DNA of 64,000 nucleotides from Alphaproteobacteria bacterium (GCA_012103315.1 WLWZ01000016.1:6288-70287), one strand, 5' to 3'. Counted from the first letter of the stretch, positions 32,769 through 62,615 are shown. The notes: a model not told the origin generated them from the letters alone. Numbers and translations are program-made.

Positions 32769-33713
32769 CTATAACAAAGCTGTTAGAGTTTTCGCCCAGG
32801 GGAATGTGGCGCCAATACCACCATTATCTTCGATTTTGCGCTGAATTTGCGATATCCGACCCTGCGAAACGTCCGCCAGCTCAGCAACATCTCGTAAAGG
32901 CAAATTGCTCGCGCGGCGCAGCAGATAAACGGTCGCCTGAAAGGCATCGGGCGCCGCCTTCCGATTAAGTAAAAGATCCTTCGACGTTCCTGATGCGGTC
33001 GCAACAGTTTGCAGAACGTTCTCCGCAGTTGGTCTTGCCGGATTGATGACTTTCGCTGAGACTTGGTCCAATGGAAGCCTGCAAATTCGGTCAGCAATGG
33101 CTTCGAGAAAACTTTCATCCCCGAGATAGTGTCCGGCACGTAAGTTGTCCCAGGGCGACGGTGCGTCCAGTCCCTCACTAACATAATTCTGCCAGGCGTC
33201 TGCCTGATCGGCTCTTTCGGACGAGAGTTGATCTAACAGCCAATCGCGATGCAGCCATGATGGTTCAATTTCATCGAAGGCGAAGGGGCGATAGCTCGAC
33301 CATTTCCAGTGATCGACGCGGTTGACCGCCTGTACTCGCACCGGGTTCAAGGCAACATGACGGCAAACCTCCAGCAAATGGCGTTCTTTTTGGAGGATGA
33401 TCGATTTGTATCGACCGTGAAAAAGGTGCCCGGGCTGATCATACTGGCGTCCAAACCATTGGGAATAGGCCATGTTCAGACGTCCCATGCCACGACCAAG
33501 GTTGGCTTCTGGTGTTTCTATGACCAGATGGTAATGATCTTCTAATAGACAGTAGGCGTAGCAGATCCATCGATGTTGAGCGATCTCGCGCGCTAGTAAG
33601 TCAATGAAATAGCTGCCGTCTTTGATGCAGGTGAATAGCTGCTGTCGGCCATTGGCACGTGCCGTTACATGATAAACAGCACCGGGATATTCTATTCTGA
33701 GCGGGCGCGACAT
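32769..33713 (-). CDS. IS200/Y1-transposase-like (HuH, COG1943) protein fused to a C-terminal DnaA-domain-IV-like HTH; apparently domesticated
   Basis: N-terminus YHVTARAN...DHYHLVIET (HxH motif) with a conserved Tyr region. The C-terminus resembles the DnaA C-terminal DNA-binding domain. The gene is packed between bolA and DUF455 with no room for IS ends. Confidence 0.65.
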   Translation of the reverse strand: MSRPLRIEYPGAVYHVTARANGRQQLFTCIKDGSYFIDLLAREIAQHRWICYAYCLLEDHYHLVIETPEANLGRGMGRLNMAYSQWFGRQYDQPGHLFHGRYKSIILQKERHLLEVCRHVALNPVRVQAVNRVDHWKWSSYRPFAFDEIEPSWLHRDWLLDQLSSERADQADAWQNYVSEGLDAPSPWDNLRAGHYLGDESFLEAIADRICRLPLDQVSAKVINPARPTAENVLQTVATASGTSKDLLLNRKAAPDAFQATVYLLRRASNLPLRDVAELADVSQGRISQIQRKIEDNGGIGATFPWAKTLTALL

Positions 33714-33757
33714 GCGTAAGCATACCCGAATCAGTATTAACAAGTAAAGTAATGACC

Positions 33758-34528
33758 CTATTCTGTTTTTGGGGCATAGAATGATCGAGGGATTCCTGCC
33801 AATTGCCGCGCTTCGTCATTAAAGGGTGGTTTTAACGCGCCTTTAAAGTGCTTTCTCACCAGCTTTCGCCATGTTTCTTCGGGGTCTTTGTCTTGTTCCT
33901 TGCAGATATATTGAAACCAACGCTGCCCAATTGCTACATGGCCAATTTCGTCGCTATAAATCCGCTCCAAAATTTCGGTACTAGGGATATCTCCTGCTTT
34001 GCGGAGGTTTTTTATCATTGTCGGCGTGACATCGAGACCCCGAGCTTCGAGCACGAGAGGAACAATCGCCAGTCTGGCCAATAAATCATGGGCAGTTCCT
34101 TGCGCCGCTTCCCACAGACCATCATGCCCAGGGAGGGCACCATAAAAACTGTCGAGGTCACGTAGGCGTTTCGCGAGTAGCGAAAAATGTAGCCCCTCTT
34201 CCGATGCAACTTTTACCCAGTCATCGAAGTAATATTGAGGCAAATCGTGCGTGGAAAACCGCGCAATAATATCGCAAGCAAGGTCGATGGCGTTGAGTTC
34301 GATATGAGCCAGAGCATGGAGGAGAGCGATACGGCCTGTCGGGCTCCCAGCCTTACCCCGTTTTGGCATATCGCGAGGTGCTAATAATTCGGGTTCGCGG
34401 GGCCGGGCCGGGCGGTCTGGCGGTGAGGCAATACCGATCTCTGAAATTTTACCGTCATGCCAAGACGGGGCCAGCTGCTGCACGAGGGTAGCTTTGTCAT
34501 CGGCATCCGCACAGCTCAGCACCGACAC
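33758..34528 (-). CDS. DUF455 ferritin-like domain protein
   Basis: 256 aa; ALAHIELNAIDLACD...EARGLD pattern. Confidence 0.6.
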   Translation of the reverse strand: MSVLSCADADDKATLVQQLAPSWHDGKISEIGIASPPDRPARPREPELLAPRDMPKRGKAGSPTGRIALLHALAHIELNAIDLACDIIARFSTHDLPQYYFDDWVKVASEEGLHFSLLAKRLRDLDSFYGALPGHDGLWEAAQGTAHDLLARLAIVPLVLEARGLDVTPTMIKNLRKAGDIPSTEILERIYSDEIGHVAIGQRWFQYICKEQDKDPEETWRKLVRKHFKGALKPPFNDEARQLAGIPRSFYAPKTE

Positions 34529-43135: not shown

Positions 43136-44221
43136 TTAGCCGTTATCGACTGACAGGACGGTTTCGCGTGGCTCATCACCCCAGCGTCGGATAAAGGCAT
43201 TTAACTTGGCGGTATTTTCCGGCACGTCGTCATAGGAAGGCGTAAAAAGCAGCATCCGAATGAGATGGCGGCGGCACTCGGCTTCCTCGTAATCCTCATA
43301 GTCGGTTCGGCTATGGATGGTGTAGTGATTGTTGAGGAACTGCATATCGCCGCGTTCGAATTCCATATCGAGCCGGATCTCGGCGCTTAAGGCCAACTCG
43401 CTGACCAAATTCATTGCCTCAGTTTGGGCCTCGGATAGACGGGGCACTTGTGGAAACCGTTGCGCGCTTTCGACATATTTCTGTCCGAAGCGTGAAAAGA
43501 ACCGTCCTTTGTGAATTGTGAAAACCTGCGCAACGTAAAACGGGTCTTCACCGTCAAACTCTTCGCCTCGGTGATCAATGCAAAATGGTTTGTAGAGTTC
43601 CGGCAACAGATCGGGGCGTGTTCGGAGGATTTCGTTATGGATTGCAATGGTACTGGCGAACGAGCTGGTGCCGCCCGACTTGGCTGTTTGCATGCATAGC
43701 AATCCGACGACATCAGACTTGTCGCAATGAAAGGGCAGATGAACCGGAGTTTGATAACCCCTCAGATTGAAGTTCTGATCCCAGTTGGCTCCCACAGCTT
43801 TGACGTGGCCGAGAAGCTCACCCATCATATTTTGAGCAACGGCCGTGCCGAGGTATGTGCCGATCCCCCAATAAATTGCCGTCGCATCCTTTTCTCCGAG
43901 TCTTTCCACCGGAAGACCGCGGATTAATTTTGCTCCCCTTCCATGCTCCAATTCCTGCAGGATTTTAGCGAGGGTAATTGCCAAATTTGGCAGCGGAAAG
44001 TCGGCTTGTGAAATATTGGGAATCTTCAAACCCTGTGATTTAACGTGCGCCAGCGCGCTATCGAGTTCCGCGATATCGTCATCTGTCAGCACATATATCC
44101 AGTCGCTAGAGCTTGCGAGCTCGGGGCCTTTCCAGCCCGCCTCCGATTCATAGGGTCGATCCAAGACATTGCTCGTCATAGATTTCACCATTCCAATGTT
44201 TTCAGTTTGAACAATTACCAA
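43136..44221 (-). CDS. TauD/TfdA family Fe(II)/2-oxoglutarate dioxygenase
   Basis: 361 aa; HCD (HxD) and downstream His motifs in a clavaminate synthase-like fold. Confidence 0.6.
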   Translation of the reverse strand: MVIVQTENIGMVKSMTSNVLDRPYESEAGWKGPELASSSDWIYVLTDDDIAELDSALAHVKSQGLKIPNISQADFPLPNLAITLAKILQELEHGRGAKLIRGLPVERLGEKDATAIYWGIGTYLGTAVAQNMMGELLGHVKAVGANWDQNFNLRGYQTPVHLPFHCDKSDVVGLLCMQTAKSGGTSSFASTIAIHNEILRTRPDLLPELYKPFCIDHRGEEFDGEDPFYVAQVFTIHKGRFFSRFGQKYVESAQRFPQVPRLSEAQTEAMNLVSELALSAEIRLDMEFERGDMQFLNNHYTIHSRTDYEDYEEAECRRHLIRMLLFTPSYDDVPENTAKLNAFIRRWGDEPRETVLSVDNG

Positions 44222-49433: not shown

Positions 49434-49510
49434 GGCGGGGTAGCTCAGCTGGTTAGAGCAGCGGAATCATAATCCGCGTGTCGGGGGTTCAAGTCCCTCT
49501 CCCGCTACCA
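49434..49510 (+). tRNA. tRNA with CAT anticodon (elongator tRNA-Met, or tRNA-Ile2 if lysidinylated)
   Basis: Cloverleaf can be folded: acceptor GGCGGGG/TCCCGCT, D-arm GCTC..GAGC, anticodon stem GCGGA/TCCGC with loop ATCATAA, T-arm GGGGG-TTCAAGT-CCCTC, 3' ACCA. It lacks initiator features (no 3 G:C pairs in the anticodon stem). Confidence 0.85.
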
Positions 49511-49532: not shown

Positions 49533-50378
49533 TCAATCCACGAACATCGGTCCGGGTTTCTCGTAGAGATCGTCGTAATCAACGAGCGCTGGTCGGCCAG
49601 AGAGCGGCTGGGAGACGCCGTTGCGGAATGCCCATTCACCGCGATCACTATTCTCGGCAATTACATAGTCATTGATATAAAAGCGCCGGTCCGTGTTGGA
49701 ACGATTAGGGCCGGAGCCGTGCAATGTGTGGACCGACCAGATGGCGACATCGCCGGGTTCCATTTCAAGCGTCACGGCTTTGTCTGGATCGAGACCTAGA
49801 TGCTCCAGGTCGTTTTCGTCCAGTCGTTGATCCATAGCAACTTCCTCGGAATTGAGGGGTAGTTCTCCCAGCGTTTGGCTGCCGGGATAAACCACCATGG
49901 CGCCATTGTTGGCATCTTGCGCATCGATTGCGATCCCGGTCGAGATGTTGGAGTTAGCGAGATCGCGAAAGGCATCACGGGGGATATGCGATCGAGAGTC
50001 CTGATGATAGCCAAATTCCATATGAGCAGTGCCGGGGTGCTTCCAATGCATCTGATTGGTGAATTGCTTGAGATTGATTCCTAGCATCGGCGCAAGAAGT
50101 TTGAGAATTCGTGGGCTGCGGCGATAGCGATCAAGGGTGCGGTTGAAGTAGCTTGGCCATTGCACATAGCGCACGACAGGGCGTAGGGCATCATCATTGG
50201 TGATCTTGAAGAATGCGTTCTGTAGACGGTAACTACGCCCCAGCATCATGGCTTCGTTGTGGACCCGTTCAAAGGCGTGAGTTAGCTCTGCGACTTCATA
50301 GGGATCAAAAACCCCACGCGCCACGGCGTACCCATTCTTACGATATTGATCTAGTAAGCCTTCTGAATCTTGGGCCAT
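49533..50378 (-). CDS. Phytanoyl-CoA dioxygenase (PhyH) family protein
   Basis: 281 aa; Fe(II)/2OG HxD...H pattern in a PhyH-like fold. Confidence 0.7.
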   Translation of the reverse strand: MAQDSEGLLDQYRKNGYAVARGVFDPYEVAELTHAFERVHNEAMMLGRSYRLQNAFFKITNDDALRPVVRYVQWPSYFNRTLDRYRRSPRILKLLAPMLGINLKQFTNQMHWKHPGTAHMEFGYHQDSRSHIPRDAFRDLANSNISTGIAIDAQDANNGAMVVYPGSQTLGELPLNSEEVAMDQRLDENDLEHLGLDPDKAVTLEMEPGDVAIWSVHTLHGSGPNRSNTDRRFYINDYVIAENSDRGEWAFRNGVSQPLSGRPALVDYDDLYEKPGPMFVD

Positions 50379-50551
50379 CTAATTGCAGTCGTACGGCTGT
50401 CCCAGGCCCGATGCCCAAAACCCAATAAAGTAACAAACGCGACAATTTAAATCAGCTTTGAGGCCGAGGGTGTGCGGCAGCGCACAACCACTTACTTTTT
50501 GTGACAATTAAATGATATGAATTGTGGATAGGTTTGGAACGCGACAGGTGA

Positions 50552-51091
50552 ATGTCTATGGCGCTAATGGATCGTCGGAAAATTCTACGTCTCGGTGTCG
50601 CCGGTGTTTGTACCCTGGCAGGCGCTCCGGTGTTCGCCGCGACAACGCAGCGCCGTTTCCTATCGTTTGAACATCTCCATACCGGCGAGAAGGATACGAT
50701 TACCTATTGGGAAGACGGGGCCTATGTCTCTGATGCTCTTAAATCGTTGGATCATTTGCTGCGCGATCATCGTACCGATGAGGTGTTGAGCATTGATCGC
50801 GACCTATTTGATCAACTACACCGTCTGCAGCGGCTGGTCGGCAGCAATCAAACATTTCAGGTTATATCCGGGTATCGATCTCCGCGGACCAACGCCATGC
50901 TGGCAAGGCGCAGCGGTGGTGTTTCAAAGCGCAGCTATCACCAGTTCGGAATGGCGATTGACGTGCGTCTACCTGGAACAGGTTTGCGAGACCTCAAATC
51001 AGCGGCTTTGTCGATGAAAGCTGGCGGTGTTGGTTATTATCCGCGTTCGAACTTTGTACATCTCGATACGGGACGTGTTCGTTTTTGGTAG
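50552..51091 (+). CDS. DUF882/YcbK (MepK-like) Tat-secreted peptidase M15 family protein
   Basis: 179 aa; twin-arginine signal MDRRKILRLGVAG...AA; DUF882 core with SYHQFGMAIDV. Confidence 0.75.
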   Translation: MSMALMDRRKILRLGVAGVCTLAGAPVFAATTQRRFLSFEHLHTGEKDTITYWEDGAYVSDALKSLDHLLRDHRTDEVLSIDRDLFDQLHRLQRLVGSNQTFQVISGYRSPRTNAMLARRSGGVSKRSYHQFGMAIDVRLPGTGLRDLKSAALSMKAGGVGYYPRSNFVHLDTGRVRFW

Positions 51092-51161
51092 CGGTGCCCG
51101 TCGCGCATCGTGAATTGGCCTGCTAGACTTCCTGAAACCTTGATGACAGGGAGCATAGAAA

Positions 51162-52055
51162 GTGGCGAATATTAAAGACCACAAATACTTCAAATCAAAA
51201 TGCGTCTATCGCGATTACACTCAGGATGAACTGAACGTTCAGTATAGCGCGCGCGGCACCGCCCCCGATGGCGATGTGTACCGGGATTTTATTTCCGAAA
51301 ATAGTGCCCGGGTGCGGGACGAGATGGAATGCCAAATCGATGTCCCCTATGGACCAACCGCTGCTGAGGTGGTCAATGTCTTTCCTGCCGAAAAACCGGG
51401 TTCACCCATCGTCTATTTCATTCATGGCGGCTACTGGCGGTCATCGAGCCAGAAGGATGTTGATCTCTATGCCGAGGCCTTGGTCCCAGCCGGCTGCGCT
51501 TATGTAACAGTGAATTATCTGCTGGCCCCGGAAGCCACGCTTGATGAGATCGTGCGTCAGTGCCGTGCTGGCCTCGCCTGGGCCTATAATAATGCCGAGA
51601 GCTTCAACGGCGATCCCAATAATGTTCATGTTGTCGGAAGATCAGCCGGAGGACATCTGACTGGTATGATGCTGGCCGATGGTTGGCGCGAGGAATTTGG
51701 CTTGCCAGATGATCTGATTAAGAGTGCCTGCGCTTTGTCAGGCCTATTTGATCTCGAGCCGGTTCGGCTGTCTAAAGTCAATGAATGGGCCAAGCTCGAT
51801 AAGGAAGCCGCCAATCGCAACAGCCCGGTTCATCATATGCCCAAGGTTTCATGCCCCATCATCATCGCCTGGGGAGAAAACGAAACCGATGAGTTTAAAC
51901 GTCAATCCGATCTGTACCGCATTGCTTGGCAGTCGCGGGGTTGGCCGTGCCAAGTCATGGAATTTGCAGGCAAGCATCATTTTGCCTCAATGCCGGACCT
52001 GATGTATCCCGACGAACCCTGTACCAAAGCGCTACTGGCGCAAATCGGGCTCTAA
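51162..52055 (+). CDS. Alpha/beta hydrolase, arylformamidase/kynurenine formamidase-like esterase
   Basis: 297 aa; HGGYW oxyanion motif; GRSAGGHL nucleophile elbow. Confidence 0.65.
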   Translation: MANIKDHKYFKSKCVYRDYTQDELNVQYSARGTAPDGDVYRDFISENSARVRDEMECQIDVPYGPTAAEVVNVFPAEKPGSPIVYFIHGGYWRSSSQKDVDLYAEALVPAGCAYVTVNYLLAPEATLDEIVRQCRAGLAWAYNNAESFNGDPNNVHVVGRSAGGHLTGMMLADGWREEFGLPDDLIKSACALSGLFDLEPVRLSKVNEWAKLDKEAANRNSPVHHMPKVSCPIIIAWGENETDEFKRQSDLYRIAWQSRGWPCQVMEFAGKHHFASMPDLMYPDEPCTKALLAQIGL

Positions 52056-52061
52056 GCAATC

Positions 52062-53426
52062 ATGACAGATATAAAAAACTGGACCCCGCCTGAGGAAATA
52101 GAACGCGCCCAATGCGTTGCGGAGTCAGATGACATCGCCGCCCGGCCCGATATTCCTTTCACCGAGCATGAAGATCTATTCCGCATCGAGGTGGTCGGGA
52201 TGGAGTGGGATATCGGTGCACAGATCTATGAGCCATTCGATCCGTCGCAAATAGCGGTCGGCGCCGACGGCAAAAAAATTGGCGTCTATCTATTATCGGG
52301 CGGTGATGGTGATTTTAAAACCATGGCGCCGGTGGCAAAGCTGCTATGCAGTAAGTTCGGTTTCAAAGTCACCACCATGACGTATCCAGGGCGTCTCTAC
52401 CTCGATGACCCGTCTCGGCACTGGCCAGGCGATACAATCAACGCAGATGGGACAATCCGTACTCCGCAATGGTTGACCGGAGAACACATTACCCCAGATC
52501 AGTATGAGGTGGTTACCGATACCTCGATCCGTGAACGCTACGGCACCCGGACTGTCTTGCACGCCAAGCCGGGAAGCACTTTTTGGTATCGTATGGCAGG
52601 CTGGCCAGCCGCATTTGAGCGTGGCGGGATCGAGGCAATGGCGCGCAATATGCCGGAAGACGAATACTCGATTTATGTCCACGGCCACTCAACCGGCGGT
52701 CCCTTCGTCTTCATGCTGTCGCAGCGCGTGCCGAATGTCGCGGGGGTCATGGCGATTGAGAACTCTGCTTTCGGTTATATCAATGAAGCCAAGCTGGCGA
52801 AGCAAGGCTCCCTTGGAGCAATTGGTGATTTCGACCAAGTTGTTACCGAAACACAACGCACCGATCCGTTCTATGAGCTCTATATCCGCACCTGGCGCGA
52901 TAAGGCACGCTATCTTGGACCTGAAAAACTTGGGCAGGACGGGCCGGTCGCCCTCATGCGCCTACCGTCTCTGATTGAGGAGGTCATGGCGGCGTGGGAT
53001 GCGGCGAAAAACGAGCCGCAGTTCAAATGCGAATACATCGTCAGCACAAATATCGAGGCATCTCTTGAAGAAGGCGCGCGCGTCACGGCTGAACGTATGG
53101 CGTTGGGAGGCAATGAAACTGAAGTTCTGATCCACCAATTCCTGGGCTATGGCCGCGAACTTAAGGGGTCAGATGTCAAGCCGGTTCCGCCGGTTCTTTT
53201 CTGTGTTTCGAAAGACAGCCGTGATCATAGTGCCGATAGCTACCGGACAATGGTCGTGCCGAAATATGCCGAGATGGACCCAGCCCCTAAAACAGCTTTG
53301 GTCCATTTTCAGGCGGGTGTGCATTCCTACTGGTGGGCGGAAGACGGCCTGCCAAACGGGATCGCGCCCTCGGTTGCCCAACTAATGCATGATGCCGTGA
53401 TGGGCGGGTATTTCTTGGGGGACTAG
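52062..53426 (+). CDS. Alpha/beta hydrolase domain protein with an uncharacterised N-terminal extension of about 200 aa
   Basis: 454 aa; GHSTGG nucleophile elbow near residue 215; no signal peptide; 6 nt after the previous gene. Confidence 0.5.
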   Translation: MTDIKNWTPPEEIERAQCVAESDDIAARPDIPFTEHEDLFRIEVVGMEWDIGAQIYEPFDPSQIAVGADGKKIGVYLLSGGDGDFKTMAPVAKLLCSKFGFKVTTMTYPGRLYLDDPSRHWPGDTINADGTIRTPQWLTGEHITPDQYEVVTDTSIRERYGTRTVLHAKPGSTFWYRMAGWPAAFERGGIEAMARNMPEDEYSIYVHGHSTGGPFVFMLSQRVPNVAGVMAIENSAFGYINEAKLAKQGSLGAIGDFDQVVTETQRTDPFYELYIRTWRDKARYLGPEKLGQDGPVALMRLPSLIEEVMAAWDAAKNEPQFKCEYIVSTNIEASLEEGARVTAERMALGGNETEVLIHQFLGYGRELKGSDVKPVPPVLFCVSKDSRDHSADSYRTMVVPKYAEMDPAPKTALVHFQAGVHSYWWAEDGLPNGIAPSVAQLMHDAVMGGYFLGD

Positions 53427-53437
53427 TCTAGCCGTCT

Positions 53438-54337
53438 CTATCCCTCGACGGAGTCGTGGACGTTATTGCGCAGGATTTCGAGGAATGAATTCGTGGCGAT
53501 AGATTGCGCAACGCGCGTATTCACCAAGGTCGCAACGATGCGGGTGATTGGCGGGTCGGTGGGGCGAAAGACGATATTGGCGTTGGGAAAGTCTGCAGCG
53601 GTTGTCCGGTCAACGAGGGTTATTCCCGCGCCGGCCTCGACCATCTTGCAAAGCGAAGTATGGGTGCGTGCTTCGCCGACCACGATGGGTTCGACTTTTT
53701 GTTTGCGTAGTGCCTTCCAGATGACGGAGCCGTATTCGCTATCTTCGGGAAGGACGACCATGCGACGGCCATTTAGTTCTCGTAAATTGACGACCTTTTG
53801 GCTCGCGAGTGGGTCACCGGCACCCATCGCCAGCAAGACGCTGGTCTCAAACAGCGGTTCAGCCTTGATAAGGGCGTCGCATACGGTCGCCGAGGCAATT
53901 CCGACATCGAAGGTTTGCGATGCGATGCCTTCGACGACACCGGCTGTGCCGGAGCTCTCAAGCTCGACCATGATCCCGGGGTTGTCTTTGAGAAATTGAC
54001 CAATAATGCTGGCGACAAACCCGTCAGCATATTTGGATAATGCGATCACACGGACGGTGCCGGTGGCCTTTTCACGGATTCCTGTAGCGACCTGGCCAAT
54101 TCTATCGAGCCCGACGAAGGAGCGTTTGACCTCATCGTAAAGCGCATGAGCATCCTGGGTTGGTACCAGGCCGCGCGCTCGACGCTCAAAAAGCTGAAAC
54201 CCGACATTAGCCTCAAGATCGCTCAGCAACCGGCTGACGGCAGGCTGGGTGACATGCAGGACTTCGCTGGCTGCGGTAGCGGAACCAAACTCCATGGCAG
54301 CCCGAAATGCTTCTATTTGTCTGAGATTAATACGCAT
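53438..54337 (-). CDS. LysR family transcriptional regulator
   Basis: 299 aa; N-terminal HTH (MRINLRQIEAFRAAMEFGSATAASEVLHVTQPAVSRLLSDLE) and a C-terminal LysR substrate-binding domain. Confidence 0.9.
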   Translation of the reverse strand: MRINLRQIEAFRAAMEFGSATAASEVLHVTQPAVSRLLSDLEANVGFQLFERRARGLVPTQDAHALYDEVKRSFVGLDRIGQVATGIREKATGTVRVIALSKYADGFVASIIGQFLKDNPGIMVELESSGTAGVVEGIASQTFDVGIASATVCDALIKAEPLFETSVLLAMGAGDPLASQKVVNLRELNGRRMVVLPEDSEYGSVIWKALRKQKVEPIVVGEARTHTSLCKMVEAGAGITLVDRTTAADFPNANIVFRPTDPPITRIVATLVNTRVAQSIATNSFLEILRNNVHDSVEG

Positions 54338-54476
54338 TATTCAACTATAACATTTAGGTATGGAAAGTGAAGATAATAGAATTCGCTATTATTTCTTGGA
54401 GTCGACAGAATAGCGTCATAGCACAACAGTTTGACTAAGATTTCTGCGCAATTCGATCTAATTTAGGGGATTTAAA

Positions 54477-55412
54477 ATGATCACACTAAGACTCGAAAGT
54501 ACTTCACCTTTTCAGGGACTAGCGGAGCTTGTCGCTGATAAAGAGGGCCTGTTTGAAAAAGAAGGCATCCACATCGAATGGATAGACCGTGATAAGGGCG
54601 TCAAGAAAGAGATTCGCACCGACATCACCAGTCCGGACGAGCTCGATCCACATGTAAGCCATGGCAAGGCGTTCGAGCAGGGCAAGGCTGATATGTATAA
54701 CGCCTGTGAATGGGGCAATTACTGTCGTGTTCAGGATACCAGCGTCCAATCTGGCCGCCAGGTTGGCCGCCGTGCTATCGTGACCTTCGCAGGTTTGGTT
54801 GTTCGGCCAGAGTCGGACGTGTACACGCCGCAGCAACTTGCCGGTAAAACGGTTGGTGTGCCGTTCTACTTTGGAACGCATTATCTTGCATTGCATATGC
54901 TGGAAGGTTTCTTGCCACGCGACCAAATCAATGTCTGTAGTGCGCCAAATGGTTCTCGTATGCGCTATGATGCGATGATGTCAGGCGAGTTGGAAGCAAC
55001 AACACTGACCGAGCCCTATCTGTCATTGGCTGAAAAGAATGGTTGTCGCGTTGTCGCGACCGCGTTCTACCACGGGACTGAAGTGGCTTCTGACAAGGTC
55101 GATACGGAAACCTATGCCAAGTTCAACCGTGCGGTTAAAGAAGCCGTTATCCGGATCAACGCCGACAAGACGAAATACCTTCAATACTTCATCGATTGTC
55201 ACAAGGACAAAGACCCTGAAGTCGGTGAGCTGACCATTGCCGATTTGCAGGCCAGCCGTATCGTGGTCGTTGACCCTGCAGCAATTCCTGCTGAGGAATT
55301 GGCTCGCACAGCGGACTGGATCAAGAGCTGGGGCATGTTGACCGAGACAGACGATCATAACGATCTGGTCAATATGGAAGTTCAAGAAGGTGCTCACGCG
55401 GCGGCTGAATAA
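54477..55412 (+). CDS. NMT1/THI5/SsuA-like periplasmic-binding-protein-fold protein lacking a signal peptide (paralog A)
   Basis: 311 aa; TSPFQGLAELVADKEGLFEKEGIHIEW N-terminus typical of the NMT1/THI5 family; invariant SHGK...YNACEWGNYCRVQD. Confidence 0.6.
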   Translation: MITLRLESTSPFQGLAELVADKEGLFEKEGIHIEWIDRDKGVKKEIRTDITSPDELDPHVSHGKAFEQGKADMYNACEWGNYCRVQDTSVQSGRQVGRRAIVTFAGLVVRPESDVYTPQQLAGKTVGVPFYFGTHYLALHMLEGFLPRDQINVCSAPNGSRMRYDAMMSGELEATTLTEPYLSLAEKNGCRVVATAFYHGTEVASDKVDTETYAKFNRAVKEAVIRINADKTKYLQYFIDCHKDKDPEVGELTIADLQASRIVVVDPAAIPAEELARTADWIKSWGMLTETDDHNDLVNMEVQEGAHAAAE

Positions 55413-55483
55413 CAGCTGACACTACTTCGAATTATGGGTGGGGATGTGTGTCTCCACCCATTCGCCTTTACAGGGAGGTCGTT

Positions 55484-56416
55484 ATGAAGAAGTTGGTTTT
55501 AGAAACCACAGCACCGTTTCAGGGGCTGGCAGAGTTGGTGGCGGATCGCGAAGGACTTTTTGCCAAAGAGGGCATTGAAATCGAATGGGCAGATCGTGAA
55601 AAGGGTGTCGATAAAACAGTCCAGAAGGACGTAACGAGCCCGGAGGGTGTTAATCCATTCGCCAGTCACGGCAAGCTCTTCGAAGAGGGTAAGGCGGATA
55701 TGTATAACGCCTGCGAATGGGGCAACTACTGCCGTGTTCAGGACACCAATCAGGGCGGTCGCCAGCTCGGTCGTCGTGCCATTGTTTGCTTTGCTGGGCT
55801 TTATGTCCGACCAGACTCTGAGGTCTATACCGCGCAACAACTGGTCGACAAGGATGTCGGAGCGCCGTTCTATTTTGGAACCCATTACCTCATCTTGCAT
55901 ATGCTGGAGGGCTTTATGAAGCGCGACCAGATTAAGCTTGTGCGGGCACCTAATGGGTCGCGTTATCGCTATGACGCGTTGATGGCTGGTGAATATGAAG
56001 CGACCTGTTTGACGGAGCCGTATGCGTCGCTGGCCGAAAAAGAGGGATGCCGGTTGGTAACTTCTTCGTTCCTGCATGGCACTGAAGTGGCTTCTGACAA
56101 GGTCGATACCGAGACCTACACCAAGTTCAATAGGGCTGTGAAAGAAGCGGTCAAACGGGTCAATGCTGACCGGTCCGCCTATATGCATTACTTCATCGAT
56201 TATTACAAAGATAAGGATACTCGGATTGCTGACATGGATATCAGCGATCTCATGGAATCCCGTGTCGTGTTGGTTGATCCAGCACCAATTCCGCAGGAAG
56301 AAGCTGATCGTACAGCTGCCTGGATCAAGAGTTGGGGCATGCTGGCGGAAACAGGTGAAGCCTCTGAGCTTATCAATATGGAAGTTCAGGACGGCGCCCA
56401 CGCTGCTGCTGAATGA
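55484..56416 (+). CDS. NMT1/THI5/SsuA-like PBP-fold protein lacking a signal peptide (paralog B)
   Basis: Start moved to MKKLVLETT (RBS AGGGAGG). Roughly 65% identical to paralog A, with the same CEWGNYC motif. Confidence 0.6.
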   Translation: MKKLVLETTAPFQGLAELVADREGLFAKEGIEIEWADREKGVDKTVQKDVTSPEGVNPFASHGKLFEEGKADMYNACEWGNYCRVQDTNQGGRQLGRRAIVCFAGLYVRPDSEVYTAQQLVDKDVGAPFYFGTHYLILHMLEGFMKRDQIKLVRAPNGSRYRYDALMAGEYEATCLTEPYASLAEKEGCRLVTSSFLHGTEVASDKVDTETYTKFNRAVKEAVKRVNADRSAYMHYFIDYYKDKDTRIADMDISDLMESRVVLVDPAPIPQEEADRTAAWIKSWGMLAETGEASELINMEVQDGAHAAAE

Positions 56417-57348
56417 AGAAGCTCACTCTTGAGACGACGGCTCCCTTTCAGGGGCTACCGGAACTCGTTGCTTATGACGAGGGCCTCTTCGAGGCTGAAG
56501 GCATTAAAGTGGCCTGGGCGGACCGTGATGCTGGTCCGAAGCCGGGAACCCAGAAAGACGTCAATACACCGGTTGGCGTTGACCCGTTTGCCAGCCACGG
56601 CAAGCTGTTCGAGCAGGGCAAAGCGGATATGTATAACGCCTGTGAGTGGGGGAATTACTGTCGCGTGCAGGATTCTGATTCAGGCGGAAAACAGGTTGGT
56701 AGACGGGCAATAGTCGCCTTTGGCGCGCTGGTTGTACCACCGGACTCGACCGCTTATACGCCCCAGCAGATGGCCGGCAAGGTTGTTGGGTTACCGTATT
56801 ATTTTGGTACCCATTTTCTGGCCCTGTTGATGCTTGAAGGCTTTTTGCCGCGTGATCAGATCAAAACCTGCAAAACTCCCAACGGCTCACGGCGCCAATA
56901 TGATGCGCTACTGCGCGGTGAATATGACGGCGCTTGTCTAACGGAGCCCTATATCTCGCTTGCGGAAAAGCAAGGCTGTCGGGTTTTGGCGGCGGCGTCT
57001 TTCCATGGCACCGAGGTCGTGTCTGACAAAGTCGATGTCGAGACCTATGCGGCATTCAATCGGGCTGTGACTGAAGCAGTGCGGCGGATCAACGCCGACA
57101 AGCAAAGCTATATGCATTACTTCATCGATTATTATAAGGATCGCGATCCCGAAGTTAGCGCGGTTCTGACAGTGGATGATTTGCGGCCAAGTCGGCTGAT
57201 TGTTCAAAAGCCAGGGCCGATCCCAACCGAAGAACTGGACCGTTCCTATGAGTGGATCAGAAGCTGGGGGATGCTGGCTGAGACGACTGTTGCCGCCGAT
57301 CTGGTCGATATGGAATCCCAGGACGAAGCGCACGCTGCGGCGGAGTGA
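56413..57348 (+). CDS. NMT1/THI5/SsuA-like PBP-fold protein lacking a signal peptide (paralog C)
   Basis: 311 aa; MKKLTLETTAPFQG; overlaps the paralog B stop by 4 nt; same conserved motifs. Confidence 0.6.
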   Translation: MKKLTLETTAPFQGLPELVAYDEGLFEAEGIKVAWADRDAGPKPGTQKDVNTPVGVDPFASHGKLFEQGKADMYNACEWGNYCRVQDSDSGGKQVGRRAIVAFGALVVPPDSTAYTPQQMAGKVVGLPYYFGTHFLALLMLEGFLPRDQIKTCKTPNGSRRQYDALLRGEYDGACLTEPYISLAEKQGCRVLAAASFHGTEVVSDKVDVETYAAFNRAVTEAVRRINADKQSYMHYFIDYYKDRDPEVSAVLTVDDLRPSRLIVQKPGPIPTEELDRSYEWIRSWGMLAETTVAADLVDMESQDEAHAAAE

Positions 57349-60585: not shown

Positions 60586-61008
60586 TTAATACGCCTGATA
60601 GGATTTCTCTTCGGTAATAGCGGCACCAAGCAATTCGTTGATCTGGGATTTCAACTCAGCTCGCCGATCATTGGTTTTATAAACAGCGCGAGCGCAGGTG
60701 ACGAACCGCTTATTAAAATCGAGGTCTCGCTCGCGATCTCGAATTTCGTCTTCAATATCCCATAGCTTGACGTTGATCGCCTTGAGGTCAGTCGCTAACC
60801 GACTGAGTTCTGGGCTCTCGCCGATTGCCGCATCGCGTACCGCACACAAGGCTTCAAGTTCACGGCGGACATTCGTAAGTTTCATTTTGTCTTCAATGCG
60901 CTTTTCCTTGATTTCCAGGATGGAGATCTTGTCGATCAGCTCTCCGAGAGATATCTCCACCTGAACTGATTCAACATTCCGGATGTGGGGTCTGGGTTGC
61001 GCACTCAT
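60586..61008 (-). CDS. Hypothetical coiled-coil protein (140 aa), translationally coupled to the upstream TPR-GT9 gene
   Basis: The track ORF extends to 61164 inside the upstream gene. The internal ATG at 61008 overlaps the TPR-GT9 stop (ATGA). Sequence is charged and helical (ELIDKISILEIKEKRIEDK...). Confidence 0.45.
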   Translation of the reverse strand: MSAQPRPHIRNVESVQVEISLGELIDKISILEIKEKRIEDKMKLTNVRRELEALCAVRDAAIGESPELSRLATDLKAINVKLWDIEDEIRDRERDLDFNKRFVTCARAVYKTNDRRAELKSQINELLGAAITEEKSYQAY

Positions 61009-62615
61009 GAGCGTCGCTCCTTTAGGTCGTATGCCATTTTGTTGAAAACACTGGCCCAGTCGCCGTGCTGGGGCTGGCGGTAAAGCGTCATCGAAGGATA
61101 CCAAGGTGTCTCTGTGCCGCTGAGCCCCCAGCGCCAGTCGGGGACGAAGGCGAGGGCGAGCCAAGTTTCCACGCCCAAAGCGCCGCCGAGATGCGCCATT
61201 GCAGTATCAGAAGTGATCAATAAGTCGACGGATTTTAAAATTGCAGCGGAGTCGAGGAACGCGCCCTCTAGGTCGATATCATTGCCCAGGGAAACGACAT
61301 CGAATCCCCAAGGCTGGTTGCCGAGCCCCTTCGTTGCGTCGCCCTGTTGCAAGCTGATCAATCGAACATAGGGTAGCTCAGCAATGGGCGCAAAGGCTTC
61401 TAGCGGGACCGAACGGCTGGTATCAGCCCGGTAATCGGGATTACCCTGCCAGCAGATCGCTACTCGTTGTTTTCCATCTGATGGAAGACGTTCCTGCCAT
61501 TCAATGACACTGTATTCTTCCGCTGAGAGATATGCTCCAGTAGACGGAAAAAAGGGCTCTGCGGGTCCGATTAAATCAGGCAAAGACAGGAGCGGTGCTT
61601 GGAAATCGCAACGTGGTTTTTCCGCAACAGCAACGTGGTTTTCACTTGTCGGGAGACTGGAGAGCAGCGGTAGCAGTTTTTCCGGCACCTCAATGACGTA
61701 GTCAATGTCACTTTCGACGAACTGACTGAGATAACGACAAAACTGGATGGTATCGCCGAGCCCTTGTTCTGCATGAATCAAGAGTTTCCCGCCTTCGCGA
61801 CTGGTCCCGTTCCAACTTGGCTTGTCTTGATGCCGAATGGCAAACCCCGGCAGGGAGCGTCGCGCCTCATAGGCTGCCCAACCACTTTGATAGTCACCTA
61901 GGCTTAGGAGCAGGAGCGCCTCATTCCACAATATTTCGGGGTTTGCTGGCGCTAGCATCGCGGCGGCTGCAAGGGTTTTCCCGGCATCGGATAGGCGACC
62001 TATTTCCTTTTGGGCCGACGCTAGATTGATTTGCGCCTTTAGGTGATTTGGCGAGAGCTCAATTGTATGTTCATAAGAGGTGATGGCCGTATTCAGCTCA
62101 CCTTGAGCGAGATGAGCGTTGGCCTGATTGAAATGAAATTCTGGTTCCAAGGGATTGAGATCGATTGCCCGCGACAGAGCGCGGACCGCTTCTTCGTATT
62201 GCCTAGCCGCATTGAGTGCTGTCCCGAGGTTTGACCAAGCCGGCGCGGAGTCGGGCAACAGGCTGCAAACACGTCTTTGGCAAGCGATTGATTTGCCGTT
62301 ATTGCCCTGATTTTTGTATAAAAGTCCCATATCGCAAAGAATAGGGGCCGAATGTGGCGACAGTTCGGCTGCCTTCTCTATAAGCTGTAACGCCCGTTTA
62401 ATCCTTCCACGATCACGGGCGATGAGCGCTGCCTGATGATAGGTGTCGGGGTCGTCTGGGTAACGTTTTAAGGCGAGTTTGATTTGTTTTTCAGCTTTTT
62501 CGAGCTTGCCGTTCTGGCGTGCTTCTGCCGCTGCCAACAACGCCAGGTTCGAGGCAGGTGTTTGATTTACTTGAGTTTTACGTGTAGCTGTAGAAATTAC
62601 GAACTCTCCAGTCAA
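61005..62615 (-). CDS. TPR-repeat protein fused to a glycosyltransferase family 9 (heptosyltransferase-like) domain
   Basis: 536 aa. N-terminal TPR repeats of about 250 aa. The C-terminal half, RVAICWQGNPD...LLITSDTAMAHLGGALGVETWLAL, matches the GT9 fold. Confidence 0.7.
   Translation of the reverse strand: MTGEFVISTATRKTQVNQTPASNLALLAAAEARQNGKLEKAEKQIKLALKRYPDDPDTYHQAALIARDRGRIKRALQLIEKAAELSPHSAPILCDMGLLYKNQGNNGKSIACQRRVCSLLPDSAPAWSNLGTALNAARQYEEAVRALSRAIDLNPLEPEFHFNQANAHLAQGELNTAITSYEHTIELSPNHLKAQINLASAQKEIGRLSDAGKTLAAAAMLAPANPEILWNEALLLLSLGDYQSGWAAYEARRSLPGFAIRHQDKPSWNGTSREGGKLLIHAEQGLGDTIQFCRYLSQFVESDIDYVIEVPEKLLPLLSSLPTSENHVAVAEKPRCDFQAPLLSLPDLIGPAEPFFPSTGAYLSAEEYSVIEWQERLPSDGKQRVAICWQGNPDYRADTSRSVPLEAFAPIAELPYVRLISLQQGDATKGLGNQPWGFDVVSLGNDIDLEGAFLDSAAILKSVDLLITSDTAMAHLGGALGVETWLALAFVPDWRWGLSGTETPWYPSMTLYRQPQHGDWASVFNKMAYDLKERRS

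Follow-up and report, generated by a model that had tools for sequence, protein, structure and literature searches.

The window, i.e., the whole stretch of 64,000 nucleotides (64 kb) that was analysed, carries three tandem, co-oriented paralogous genes (PBP1, PBP2, and PBP3) next to a divergently oriented lysR gene. The genes and sites considered here are as follows.

51162-52055, + strand: esterase of the hormone-sensitive-lipase/BD-FAE family, with an HGGYW oxyanion motif
52062-53426, + strand: 454-aa protein with a GHSTGG (GXSXG) motif; gene convergent with lysR
53438-54337, - strand: LysR-family regulator (Pfam HTH_1 and LysR_substrate), divergent from PBP1-3
54338-54476, no strand: putative lysR-PBP1 control region, from an alignment of 8 orthologous intergenic regions
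54345-54361, no strand: conserved block CTATAACATTTAGGTAT, an ATA-N9-TAT dyad and candidate LysR site
54373-54392, no strand: conserved block ATAATAGAATTCGCTATTAT, from the alignment of the 8 intergenic regions
54384-54395 / 54404-54415, no strand: imperfect inverted repeat inside the lysR-PBP1 control region
54477-55412, + strand: PBP1, 311 aa; ORF call with a GGGGA ribosome-binding site upstream; identical to NKB22344.1
54657-54737, + strand: SHGK...CEWGNYCRVQD motif in PBP1, from the alignment
55484-56416, + strand: PBP2, 310 aa; ATG start with a GGGAGG ribosome-binding site; NKB22345.1
55664-55744, + strand: SHGK...GKADMYNACEWGNYCRVQD motif in PBP2, from the alignment
56413-57348, + strand: PBP3, 311 aa; ORF call; NKB22346.1; the sequence used for the AlphaFold model
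56593-56673, + strand: SHGK...GKADMYNACEWGNYCRVQD motif in PBP3, from the alignment
56641-56643, + strand: codon of the invariant Cys77 in PBP3

The sequence-only reading had described three tandem, co-oriented, signal-less paralogs of about 60-70% identity. The coordinates agree, and our alignment gave pairwise identities of 65-71% (i.e., 71% for PBP1/PBP2, 66% for PBP1/PBP3, and 65% for PBP2/PBP3). For PBP2, the ORF listing also offers a GTG start at 55448 (322 aa); we prefer the ATG at 55484, because it is preceded by the GGGAGG ribosome-binding site and yields 310 aa, which is the length of NKB22345. The PBP3 ATG overlaps the PBP2 stop codon as ATGA, and PBP3 is translationally coupled to PBP2. 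All three proteins (3/3) share the motif SHGK(A/L)FE(Q/E)GKADMYNACEWGNYCRVQD, and their C-terminal AHAAAE is identical. Compared with the closest genome, the paralogs had dN/dS values of 0.02-0.03 (0.024 for PBP1), with synonymous sites near saturation; PBP1-3 are real genes, and all three copies are under very strong purifying selection. Consistently, three-copy relatives retain three orthologous clades in a tree that included 11 marine loci (L001-L009, L053, and L064, the last two with two copies seen).

The lysR gene adjoins the paralogs in all 10 multi-copy loci that cover the region upstream of PBP1 (L001-L005, L007-L009, L053, and L064), as well as in L084 and L091. This conserved synteny, together with the conserved intergenic blocks, bears out the earlier placement of a LysR regulator beside the triple, and LysR likely regulates the PBP1-3 operon. 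The control region also holds an AGGGG ribosome-binding site, and a promoter-like site was found on the - strand (54371-54344) at a level no more than chance expectation. By appearance, the operon in the window contains no genes other than the three paralogs, except perhaps ispG downstream, and no dioxygenase gene (Rieske genes included) lies beside it.

The two genes beyond lysR are uncertain parts of the PBP system. The esterase, previously proposed as a deformylase-like partner, belongs to the hormone-sensitive-lipase family and bears only modest similarity to kynurenine formamidase; nor is it a constant neighbour, being syntenic only in the closest relatives (L001-L005, L007-L009, L064, and L091) and replaced in L084. 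The 454-aa protein gave no match in Pfam, NCBIfam, and PDB searches. It has 1760 homologs, a few of which, among the 120 matches listed, are named carboxylesterase by JGI, and its sequence suggests that it is probably a divergent alpha/beta hydrolase; its homologs elsewhere are unlinked to the PBP family. In a further relative, a glyoxalase-family gene replaces the gene of the 454-aa protein. A marine relative with the same LysR-triple arrangement carries Rieske alpha/beta and Amidohydro_2 genes in the place of the esterase; the Amidohydro_2 gene overlaps lysR, and no adjacent gene matches a dehydrogenase family.

Fold, cellular location, and lack of transporter genes

Foldseek matched the AlphaFold model of PBP3 (pLDDT 90.4, pTM 0.89) to THI5, SsuA, TauA, ThiY, and DszB at TM 0.6-0.7 and 12-17% identity, and a family profile search matched E. 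coli SsuA (E=2e-8) and TauA (6e-6), with the homology lying over domain 2. Both results agree with the NMT1/THI5/SsuA fold proposed earlier, and PBP1-3 are predicted to adopt an SsuA/TauA/THI5/DszB-like type-II binding-protein fold of the SsuA/NMT1 branch. No curated model (Pfam, TIGR) was reached at its cut-off by PBP1-3. More specifically, the Pfam NMT1/NMT1_2 scores (18.6-21.1 bits) were under the curated cut-offs of 20.5 and 24.7, with NMT1 (PF09084) giving 18.6 bits for PBP1 against a gathering cut-off of 20.5 and leaving PBP2 and PBP3 unmatched; TIGR01728 scored 18-24 bits (cut-off 163.5) and TIGR01729 scored 19.8 bits (cut-off 304).

An N-terminal scan of PBP1-3 detected neither a signal peptide nor a lipobox or Tat motif. 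Within the first 45 residues, the 12-residue stretch of highest hydrophobicity reached a Kyte-Doolittle mean of 0.64-0.93, compared with ~2.5 by the same measure in two genuinely exported relatives. The in-frame codons upstream to the previous stop number 5 for PBP1, 25 for PBP2, and 0 for PBP3, and in the PBP3 structure model the first beta-strand of the fold already occupies residues 2-7. There is no room upstream of PBP1-3 for a signal peptide, and its reported absence held up also after the PBP2 start had been re-called. Likewise, 37 ORF products from 24.5-63.7 kb of the window were scanned and not one matched an ABC permease or ATPase family, in keeping with the earlier remark that none is nearby, and such genes are absent among the recurrent neighbour gene clusters of 80 related loci. 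PBP1-3 are cytoplasmic and stand outside any transporter; the general idea that they are cytoplasmic proteins, presumably enzymes, rather than transport proteins is supported.

It is very unlikely that PBP1-3 are genuine transport binding proteins, i.e., orphans of the SsuA/TauA type that are exported by a non-classical route or serve a permease encoded elsewhere. Public annotation as ABC or NitT/TauT substrate-binding proteins and the significant profile homology to SsuA and TauA over domain 2 would fit such a role, but the missing export signals and upstream room, the lack of a permease or ATPase both in the window and among recurrent neighbours, and the TIGR01728 score far under its cut-off all argue against it. 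In addition, a distant family member on a Geminicoccaceae plasmid adjoins a complete ABC system already equipped with an exported binding protein; therefore, the family member is not the binding protein of that system. In public data the family runs to >4,000 sequence clusters, most of which derive from uncultured Alphaproteobacteria of sea and soil; they are annotated as hypothetical, ABC, or NitT/TauT substrate-binding proteins. The transporter label of this family is almost certainly wrong on both location and function, and such mislabelling leads metagenome surveys to overcount transporters of sulfonate, taurine, and nitrate.

Conserved residues and gene contexts of the family

A wide alignment of 21 sequences, including 18 relatives (17 of these at 27-36% identity), was used to define the conserved positions. 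In relatives at 27-38% identity, C77, G80, R84, G132, G143, P179, A184, G188, and A222 are invariant, and W79 and E178 are nearly so. The motif C77-x-W-G-x3-R84 is carried by PBP1-3 and 27 core members; it is all that distant relatives, including those of haloarchaea and actinomycetes, retain, and it also occurs in a Geminicoccaceae and a Mesorhizobium plasmid protein. Thus, the strict conservation of a two-Cys motif and an HGK, as claimed from the sequence, stands for PBP1-3 and the core family and fails in the distant relatives: HGK and the second cysteine (C83) are confined to the core, and in the wider family C77 alone of the two proposed signature cysteines never varies. No His or acidic partner of Cys77 is invariant across the 21 sequences. 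In the PBP3 model, C77 ends the strand at residues 73-77 and is followed by a helix at 78-87. The proposed C-x-W-G-x3-R family is one of signal-less SsuA-fold proteins (~290-315 aa overall, 288-292 aa in distant members) whose junction between strand 3 and the following helix carries Cys77, Trp79, Gly80, and Arg84. Several of the invariant residues, as read from type-II topology and secondary structure, would lie on the loops lining the cleft. Three tandem signal-less NMT1-like genes are also seen in haloarchaea, and the first gene of these trios has the variant C-K-W-E-x3-R.

The same positions bear on the thiamin or pyrimidine role suggested earlier, in which PBP1-3 would be THI5-like single-turnover HMP-P synthases or thiamin/pyrimidine salvage enzymes, with three copies kept because each molecule is consumed. 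The yeast THI5 family is multicopy, which the multiple PBP copies recall; THI5 ranks high among the structural matches (TM 0.63-0.66) and is the best profile match (hhalign probability 92%). However, hhalign placed THI5 Lys62 opposite A76 (C77 being the next column) and His66 opposite C83; residues 17-47 of the THI5 query match the PDB alignment, and its numbering fits the literature. The HGK residues (62-64) lie in a different, upstream loop, away from the Lys62/His66 site. The region aligned to the THI5 CCCXC motif reads GCRVLAAASF, and its single cysteine is not conserved in distant members. Neither a TPP riboswitch in the 64 kb window nor a thiamin gene among the neighbours examined, in the window and at related loci, was found; the NMT1 Pfam score is below its cut-off for PBP1 with none for PBP2 and PBP3, and in most genomes the family is represented by a single gene, located in an aromatic-catabolism cluster. 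The THI5-like reading is largely refuted, and we regard it as scarcely credible.

The marine lineage shares 65-70% identity with proteins of soil Alphaproteobacteria bins (several assigned to Xanthobacteraceae), and of the three paralogs PBP2 is closest to the soil single-copy ortholog at 60/71 loci (67-71% identity). A Rieske oxygenase alpha gene lies within 300 nt in 37/71 and a LigB-type dioxygenase gene within 3 kb in 45/71 soil single-copy loci, counts that are not independent events because the soil loci come mostly from one lineage (Xanthobacteraceae-like genome bins). In the same set, 30 loci encode a homolog of 4,5-dihydroxyphthalate decarboxylase (PDB 9JP7, E=4e-92) within 3 kb, and 40 have UbiD within 10 kb. 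At the 34 loci where the Rieske alpha gene was called by gene clustering, it follows the PBP-family gene on the same strand with one outlier, and the two are separated by short gaps or overlap.

Outside this lineage, related contexts recur, among them the marine LysR-triple with its Rieske and Amidohydro_2 genes. On another contig, a LigB-like gene and a PBP-family gene form a pair amid housekeeping genes; other members directly precede hydantoinase A/B genes, and these LigB-like or hydantoinase contexts have no Rieske gene. For one distant member, the neighbours are MFS and Amidohydro_2 genes. Across members the contexts differ widely, with hydantoinase genes, beta-RFAP-synthase-like with SAICAR-synthase-like genes, and peptide ABC systems, and no single reaction fits all.

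Possible functions of PBP1-3

On balance, we think it probable, if only somewhat so, that PBP1-3 are cytoplasmic, cofactor-independent enzymes under LysR control, with anionic intermediates derived from aromatics as their substrates. They would likely be lyases, decarboxylases, or isomerases that work without a cofactor on an anionic aromatic or ring-derived carboxylate bound in the cleft between the two domains. Cys77, at the classic anion-binding spot of the fold, may hold the anionic group together with Trp79, Gly80, and Arg84, and may donate or accept a proton or make a nucleophilic attack. The three paralogs would be ancient isoforms, each conserved in its own right, that share a single operon controlled by the divergent LysR; they may differ in substrate preference or form subunits of a hetero-oligomer. 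In favour of this explanation are the cytoplasmic location, the fold and its distant homologies, the invariant residues, the dioxygenase-rich contexts of the soil loci with their recurrences in other lineages, the precedent of DnpB, and the very strong purifying selection. Several points count against an enzymatic role: (i) no dioxygenase gene lies beside the operon in the window; (ii) a cleft with a conserved cysteine fits a non-catalytic ligand-binding protein equally well; (iii) Cys77 is without an invariant His or acid partner in the wider family; and (iv) the contexts of members differ widely, such that no one reaction suits all.

A more specific version of this explanation is that the proteins are aromatising lyases, which would dehydrate and/or decarboxylate the cis-dihydrodiol product of an adjacent Rieske dioxygenase and so replace an NAD-dependent diol dehydrogenase. 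Fold-related prephenate/cyclohexadienyl dehydratases, chorismate dehydratase MqnA, and DnpB would be the analogues; cyclohexadienes are known substrates of enzymes with a binding-protein fold, MqnA among them. The apparent PBP-Rieske alpha-Rieske beta operon of the 34 soil loci, with its short gaps and with no SDR-type diol dehydrogenase found within 8 kb by a motif heuristic only, is consistent with such a lyase, and so is the marine relative whose Rieske alpha/beta genes stand beside the LysR-triple with no adjacent dehydrogenase-family gene. DnpB, moreover, carries out a cofactor-free rearomatising elimination (bioRxiv 10.1101/749879). However, the operon in the window has no Rieske gene near it, other members accompany LigB-like or hydantoinase genes instead, and a dehydrogenase could equally be encoded elsewhere, because ferredoxin and reductase genes are also missing from the PBP-Rieske clusters. 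We consider this version decidedly improbable. It is likewise doubtful, though conceivable, that the family is a new class of cysteine-dependent, cofactor-free SsuA-fold enzymes partnering ring-oxidising dioxygenases, with the three marine isoforms, like the haloarchaeal trios, being hetero-oligomeric; possible activities of such a class are an aromatising cis-dihydrodiol dehydratase/decarboxylase or a ring-fission polycarboxylate isomerase/decarboxylase.

Alternatively, and with a minority but appreciable chance, PBP1-3 are non-catalytic cytoplasmic binding proteins by which an anionic metabolite or metal is buffered, handed to partner enzymes (i.e., of Rieske, LigB, or hydantoinase type), or sensed, after the model of the NrtA-like regulatory domain of CmpC/NrtC ATPases. 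The fold is primarily a binding fold, of which cytoplasmic regulatory copies exist (9UAK and 9UAI, TM 0.68-0.71); the varied neighbour enzymes are easier to reconcile with a general role in assistance or delivery than with a single fixed reaction, Cys77 has no invariant catalytic partner, and the three-gene operon in the window comes without another enzyme. Against this, an invariant cysteine at the anion site and 65-70% identity between marine and soil proteins are more typical of enzymes, those stand-alone cytoplasmic members of the fold branch that have been characterised (DszB, THI5, 4,5-dihydroxyphthalate decarboxylase, and DnpB) are enzymes, and no transporter or signalling domain is fused or adjacent.

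If PBP1-3 are enzymes, as we favour, they add one more family to the short list of binding-protein-fold catalysts, and may fill an unassigned step of aromatic-acid breakdown in abundant soil bacteria. If they are non-catalytic, they would still be out of the ordinary, as free-standing cytoplasmic binding proteins that serve oxygenases. The single invariant cysteine lends itself to a simple mutational test.

Comparison with known systems

With SsuA and TauA, PBP1-3 have in common the two-domain type-II fold (Foldseek TM 0.62-0.68) and the (D/E)-P hinge motif; they differ in being only 13-17% identical and in having no signal peptide, permease, or ATPase. Their A-C-E-W-G turn, as read from the topology, appears to lie at the usual anion-binding place of the fold. 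The C-terminal regulatory domain of CmpC/NrtC (PDB 9UAK, 9UAI) is a cytoplasmic NrtA-like fold whose TM values are among the highest (0.68-0.71); there, fusion to a transporter ATPase goes with a role as nitrate or bicarbonate sensor, whereas PBP1-3 are stand-alone and ~14% identical to it.

THI5/NMT1 HMP-P synthase of yeast (PDB 4H67, 4ESX) is, like PBP1-3, cytoplasmic, multicopy, and of the same fold. Its catalytic residues occupy the same strand-end/helix-start site as the conserved PBP motif, but Lys62, His66, and CCCXC are not kept in PBP1-3 (identity ~14%). DszB (2'-hydroxybiphenyl-2-sulfinate desulfinase; PDB 2DE2, 2DE3; TM 0.59-0.63, hhalign probability 87.5%, identity 12-13%) is a cytoplasmic cofactor-free enzyme of the same fold, which employs a cysteine and whose substrate is an aromatic anion. 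Its catalytic residues are Cys27, His60, and Arg70. Cys27 is in the loop after strand 1, which in the PBP proteins reads T9-A10-P11-F12-Q13-G14, whereas the PBP cysteine follows strand 3; the hhalign alignment with DszB begins after Cys27 and is gapped around Arg70. No dsz gene context was found around PBP1-3.

4,5-Dihydroxyphthalate decarboxylase (PDB 9JP7) is a cytoplasmic protein of ~330 aa with a binding-protein fold and an aromatic polycarboxylate substrate, and a homolog is encoded in the same soil clusters as the PBP ortholog. Against the PBP family it gave an hhalign probability of 84%, a similarity on a par with the distant homology to SsuA, TauA, THI5, ThiY, and DszB; the alignment spans 220 columns and pairs Arg84 with an Arg of the decarboxylase. 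It has S-E-L-S-F-S-S-Y-I-R where the PBP family has N-A-C-E-W-G-N-Y-C-R, and therefore no counterpart of Cys77. PBP1-3 were rejected as members of the decarboxylase family itself: 9JP7 was not matched from the PBP family by phmmer or hmmsearch, whereas the true soil homolog scores E=4e-92, and the two are separate families.

DnpB of Paraburkholderia sp. KU-46 (288 aa) was annotated as a nitrate ABC binding protein, and the purified protein eliminates nitrite from reduced dinitrophenol in a cofactor-independent manner (bioRxiv 10.1101/749879). Compared by its published description alone, it matches distant PBP-family members in length (288-292 aa); no Paraburkholderia protein was among the homology search matches, and DnpB (LC496529) was compared by fold class. 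The PBP family may have taken over the SsuA/NMT1 solute-binding fold for intracellular work by the same route as DszB, THI5, 4,5-dihydroxyphthalate decarboxylase, and DnpB.

Three tandem genes, their fold and their cellular location

The sequence-only reading had placed three co-oriented ORFs in tandem, coding for SsuA/NMT1-fold paralogs, and all three are present at that position in the window:

PBP1: 54477-55412 (+), ORF of 311 aa
PBP2: start best placed at ATG 55484 (+), with a GGGAGG ribosome-binding site upstream; 310 aa, the length of deposited NKB22345
PBP3: 56413-57348 (+), ORF of 311 aa; start codon and PBP2 stop codon overlap as ATGA

The source is a metagenome-assembled alphaproteobacterium, in which PBP1-3 are deposited as NKB22344-NKB22346. 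Alignment of the products gave pairwise identities of 65-71%, and, with coordinates checked, SHGK(A/L)FE(Q/E)GKADMYNACEWGNYCRVQD is common to all three, as is the C-terminal AHAAAE. Relative to the closest genome, dN/dS was 0.02-0.03, with synonymous sites near saturation; PBP1-3 are real genes under constraint.

Scores of PBP1-3 against the Pfam NMT1 and NMT1_2 models and the NCBIfam SsuA/TauA models all fell below the curated cut-offs. A first structure model relied solely on close homologs and gave pLDDT below 50 in the motif region; a second, built on a diverse alignment, resolved it (pLDDT 90.4, pTM 0.89). The SsuA/THI5-type fold proposed earlier was borne out by a Foldseek search of the PDB, which returned THI5, SsuA, TauA, ThiY, DszB, PqqT and a CmpC domain (i.e., its cytoplasmic regulatory domain) at TM 0.6-0.7 and 12-17% identity, with none standing out. 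The family profile matched E. coli SsuA (E=2e-8), and profile-profile comparison gave 92% for THI5, 87.5% for DszB and 84% for a 4,5-dihydroxyphthalate decarboxylase homolog. Given these fold and profile matches together with the below-cut-off curated scores, PBP1-3 are a separate family inside the SsuA/NMT1 branch of the type-II binding-protein fold.

As read from the sequence, PBP1-3 have no signal peptide: maximal hydrophobicity over 12 residues near the N-terminus is 0.64-0.93, compared with about 2.5 for two exported relatives. Re-calling the start codons of PBP1-3 uncovered no hidden signal peptide; an in-frame stop precedes the start by 5, 25 and 0 codons in PBP1, PBP2 and PBP3, respectively, and in the structure model the first strand of the fold already spans residues 2-7. 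The absence of a nearby transporter likewise held, since Pfam searches with the products of 37 ORFs lying from 24.5 to 63.7 kb yielded no ABC permease or ATPase family. The surroundings are mainly housekeeping (mnmA, a tRNA-Met gene, ispG, arfB, msrB, tyrS, glnE and others). The proteins might nonetheless be true transport receptors, but they lack the signal peptide, transporter genes and curated score of SsuA and TauA, and we regard this reading as very unlikely. On a Geminicoccaceae plasmid, a family member lies directly upstream of a complete ABC system; the latter comes with an exported binding protein of its own, which argues against the family itself being the transport receptor. This locus (L088 7995-11793; Geminicoccaceae bacterium SCSIO 64248 plasmid p1) encodes the signal-less member (YRACEWGQVRR) and, downstream of it, an exported SsuA-like binding protein, permease, ATPase and IclR regulator; a single cluster holds both cytoplasmic and transport copies of the same fold.

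Copy history, regulation and gene neighbourhoods

In a neighbour-joining tree, PBP1, PBP2 and PBP3 formed three orthologous clades across related marine genomes; thus the triplication is old and every copy has been retained. Two loci, L053 (a short contig) and L064, show only a PBP1-type and a PBP2-type copy, and PBP2 was the best match for 60 of the 71 soil single-copy loci. In the marine relative L084 (7242-8519), a Transposase_mut gene sits between the second and third paralogs, and all paralogs are full length (310-311 aa) despite this insertion. A single operon would fit the gene order and the overlapping PBP2 stop and PBP3 start. The LysR-family gene noted next to the paralogs (lysR, 53438-54337, -) proved to accompany them, in divergent orientation, in all related loci extending far enough. 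Within the 139-bp lysR-PBP1 intergenic region, two blocks are conserved, including an ATA-N9-TAT dyad; we infer that LysR regulates PBP1-3. Promoter and terminator scans gave matches no more frequent than chance.

Among the closest marine relatives, the esterase/454-aa protein/LysR/PBP1-3/ispG block is syntenic, and the genes upstream of lysR are variable: one relative carries genes for the alpha and beta subunits of a Rieske oxygenase together with an Amidohydro_2 gene overlapping lysR, and in another the esterase gene precedes a glyoxalase-family gene. A tRNA-Met gene (anticodon CAT; 49434-49510, +) lies between mnmA and an accessory block (49533-54337) that includes PhyH dioxygenase, DUF882 peptidase, esterase and 454-aa protein genes. 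Which genes it holds varies from one close relative to another (in L003, neither PhyH nor DUF882 was matched; Rieske and Amidohydro_2 genes instead in L084; 2OG-oxygenase, BLUF and glyoxalase genes in L091). The block has an unremarkable GC content and appears to be a flexible region adjoining a tRNA gene. The esterase had been read as deformylase-like, which did not hold up: its similarity is of the generic lipase/esterase kind (kynurenine formamidase, E=2.5e-11), and it is not a constant neighbour. The 454-aa protein (52062-53426, +) has a GHSTGG (GXSXG) motif, no Pfam, NCBIfam or PDB match, and at least 1,760 homologs. Identity remains as high as 57-60% in a Deltaproteobacteria bin, and JGI occasionally gives homologs the name 'pimeloyl-ACP methyl ester carboxylesterase'; the 454-aa protein is a well-conserved uncharacterised family in its own right. 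It was rejected as a functional clue because homologs elsewhere occur in unrelated contexts, and the NMT1 protein adjoining one such homolog is a regular exported binding protein.

Elsewhere in the window, a TauD/TfdA-family dioxygenase gene (43136-44221, -) lies between tyrS and anmK, 10 kb upstream of PBP1-3, and we found no link between them. The N-terminal part of a 324-aa ORF (32769-33743, -) adjoining a DUF455 gene (33758-34528, -) contains an IS200-like Y1 transposase domain, beyond which lie about 200 unexplained extra residues. The ORFs for a DUF6165/DUF4254 protein (60586-61164, -) and a 536-aa TPR protein (61005-62615, -) overlap by 160 nt; because the DUF6165 match starts at residue 68, the true start of that ORF is probably further downstream. 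This gene pair is again found beside msrB in the relative L083.

Neighbours were counted at the single-copy loci, which come mostly from soil Xanthobacteraceae-like bins.

Genes near the family member at 71 single-copy loci
Rieske oxygenase alpha subunit, within 300 nt: 37 of 71
LigB-type extradiol dioxygenase, within 3 kb: 45 of 71
4,5-dihydroxyphthalate decarboxylase homolog (E=4e-92 to PDB 9JP7), within 3 kb: 30 of 71
UbiD decarboxylase, within 10 kb: 40 of 71

FAD monooxygenase, MFS and GntR genes also recur at these loci. Intergenic gaps were short in the 34 loci where gene clustering called a Rieske alpha gene, and a motif heuristic detected no SDR-type diol dehydrogenase within 8 kb in the same 34 loci. 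An aromatising lyase acting on the dihydrodiol of the neighbouring Rieske enzyme is an attractive but weakly supported idea; this version, counted within the broader enzyme reading, we judge improbable. Outside the soil lineage, we observed an isolated pair of a LigB-like gene and a family gene, a family gene followed directly by hydantoinase A and B genes, and a distant member with MFS, Amidohydro_2 and gamma-glutamyltransferase genes. At another locus (L090), a 354-aa gene just downstream of the family member matched no Pfam family and was not significantly similar to the LigB-like gene of L085; visual inspection shows a resemblance to TctC/Bug-type binding proteins.

Spread of the family

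In a collection of 5.8 billion proteins clustered at 90% identity, more than 4,225 clusters matched the family. Not one of the 120 matches listed carried a precomputed Pfam domain, and these were named only 'hypothetical protein' or 'NitT/TauT family substrate-binding protein'. We found no described member in the literature; mis-annotation of the family is widespread. Clustering at 50% reduced the core family to essentially two full-length clusters, followed by about 1,000 representatives that are more distant. Even between marine Rhodospirillaceae-like and soil Xanthobacteraceae genome bins, core members share 65-70% identity. Distant members (27-38% identity) occur in cultured organisms, on plasmids of a Geminicoccaceae strain, Mesorhizobium, Aminobacter, Neorhizobium and haloarchaea, as well as in Streptomyces, Saccharothrix and Microbacterium.

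Two haloarchaeal plasmids, of Haloterrigena turkmenica (pHTUR02; L093 6950-9805) and Halococcus dombrowskii (L094 6950-9800), each carry a tandem trio of genes (298-328 aa) that overlap or lie close together. All are annotated 'ABC transporter substrate-binding protein', and inspection by eye revealed no hydrophobic leader at the N-terminus. Each trio comprises three different NMT1-like subfamilies, of which the first alone has a C-K-W-E-x3-R motif variant, and is accompanied by cupin, VOC and xanthine-dehydrogenase-family genes, with no adjacent permease or ATPase gene; it may form a three-subunit cytoplasmic complex. A distant subfamily, 37-41% identical to protein P0170 or PBP3, occurs in Streptomyces (L100 5834-10023) and on a Mesorhizobium sp. 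L-2-11 plasmid (L089 1345-8867) near a GHMP-kinase-like/beta-RFAP-synthase-family gene, a SAICAR-synthase-like gene and a sugar kinase. The recurrence of these neighbours in an actinomycete as well as on a rhizobial plasmid hints that this branch has a different, biosynthetic role.

Conserved residues, candidate function and known systems

Alignment of the core family identified H62, G63, C77-D87, G132-H134, N157/S159/R160, E178-P179 and H198-E201 as invariant. Only C77, G80, R84, G132, G143, P179, A184, G188 and A222 are also invariant in distant relatives, with W79 and E178 nearly so, and the wider family keeps C-x-W-G-x3-R. The conserved His-Gly-Lys and two-Cys motif reported from sequence stands for the core family, to which H62, K64 and C83 are confined. 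In the structure model, C77 closes strand 73-77 and helix 78-87 comes next; this junction of strand end and helix start we take to be where the fold binds the anionic group of its ligand.

The profile alignment set Lys62 of THI5 opposite A76/C77 and His66 opposite C83, such that the CEWGNYC motif, rather than HGK, occupies the place of the THI5 Lys/His pair. THI5 catalytic residues and its CCCXC motif are absent from the family in the same alignment. The suggested thiamin-type role was rejected: PBP1-3 share the THI5 fold but lack Lys62, His66, CCCXC, a TPP riboswitch in the window, a score above the Pfam cut-off and a thiamin context, leaving a THI5-like function with hardly any probability.

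The most economical reading, which we hold to be somewhat more probable than its negation, is that of cytoplasmic enzymes built on a binding-protein scaffold and acting on anionic aromatic or ring-derived substrates, which Cys77 and Arg84 would hold at the anion site. Its main rival, a non-catalytic cytoplasmic binding or delivery protein, is kept in play by the diversity of partner enzymes and the missing second invariant catalytic residue, and we consider it unlikely, though deserving of real weight. A minor share of the probability lies outside all these readings and is left unassigned.

For the enzyme reading, the fold offers several precedents. DszB is a cysteine-dependent desulfinase, its cysteine lying in the loop after strand 1, where PBP1-3 have no Cys, and THI5 is an HMP-P synthase; 4,5-dihydroxyphthalate decarboxylase has the same fold and is encoded in the same soil clusters as the family. 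The finding is an uncharacterised, widespread family among binding-protein-fold proteins that work in the cytoplasm, with an invariant cysteine as a clean handle for experiments. DnpB, annotated as a nitrate ABC binding protein and compared here by its published description, eliminated nitrite from the hydride-Meisenheimer complex of 2,4-dinitrophenol as a purified protein with no cofactor (bioRxiv 10.1101/749879); plasmid tblastn and protein searches placed no sequence of its host genus, Paraburkholderia, in the family. OpaO, a 300-aa hypothetical protein with haloarchaeal homologs encoded in the o-phthalate operon of Pseudomonas PTH10 (PMC6362003), is, judged by its description, a tempting candidate member. 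This fold is known to have been recruited for catalysis before, and the function of the present family is a candidate one.
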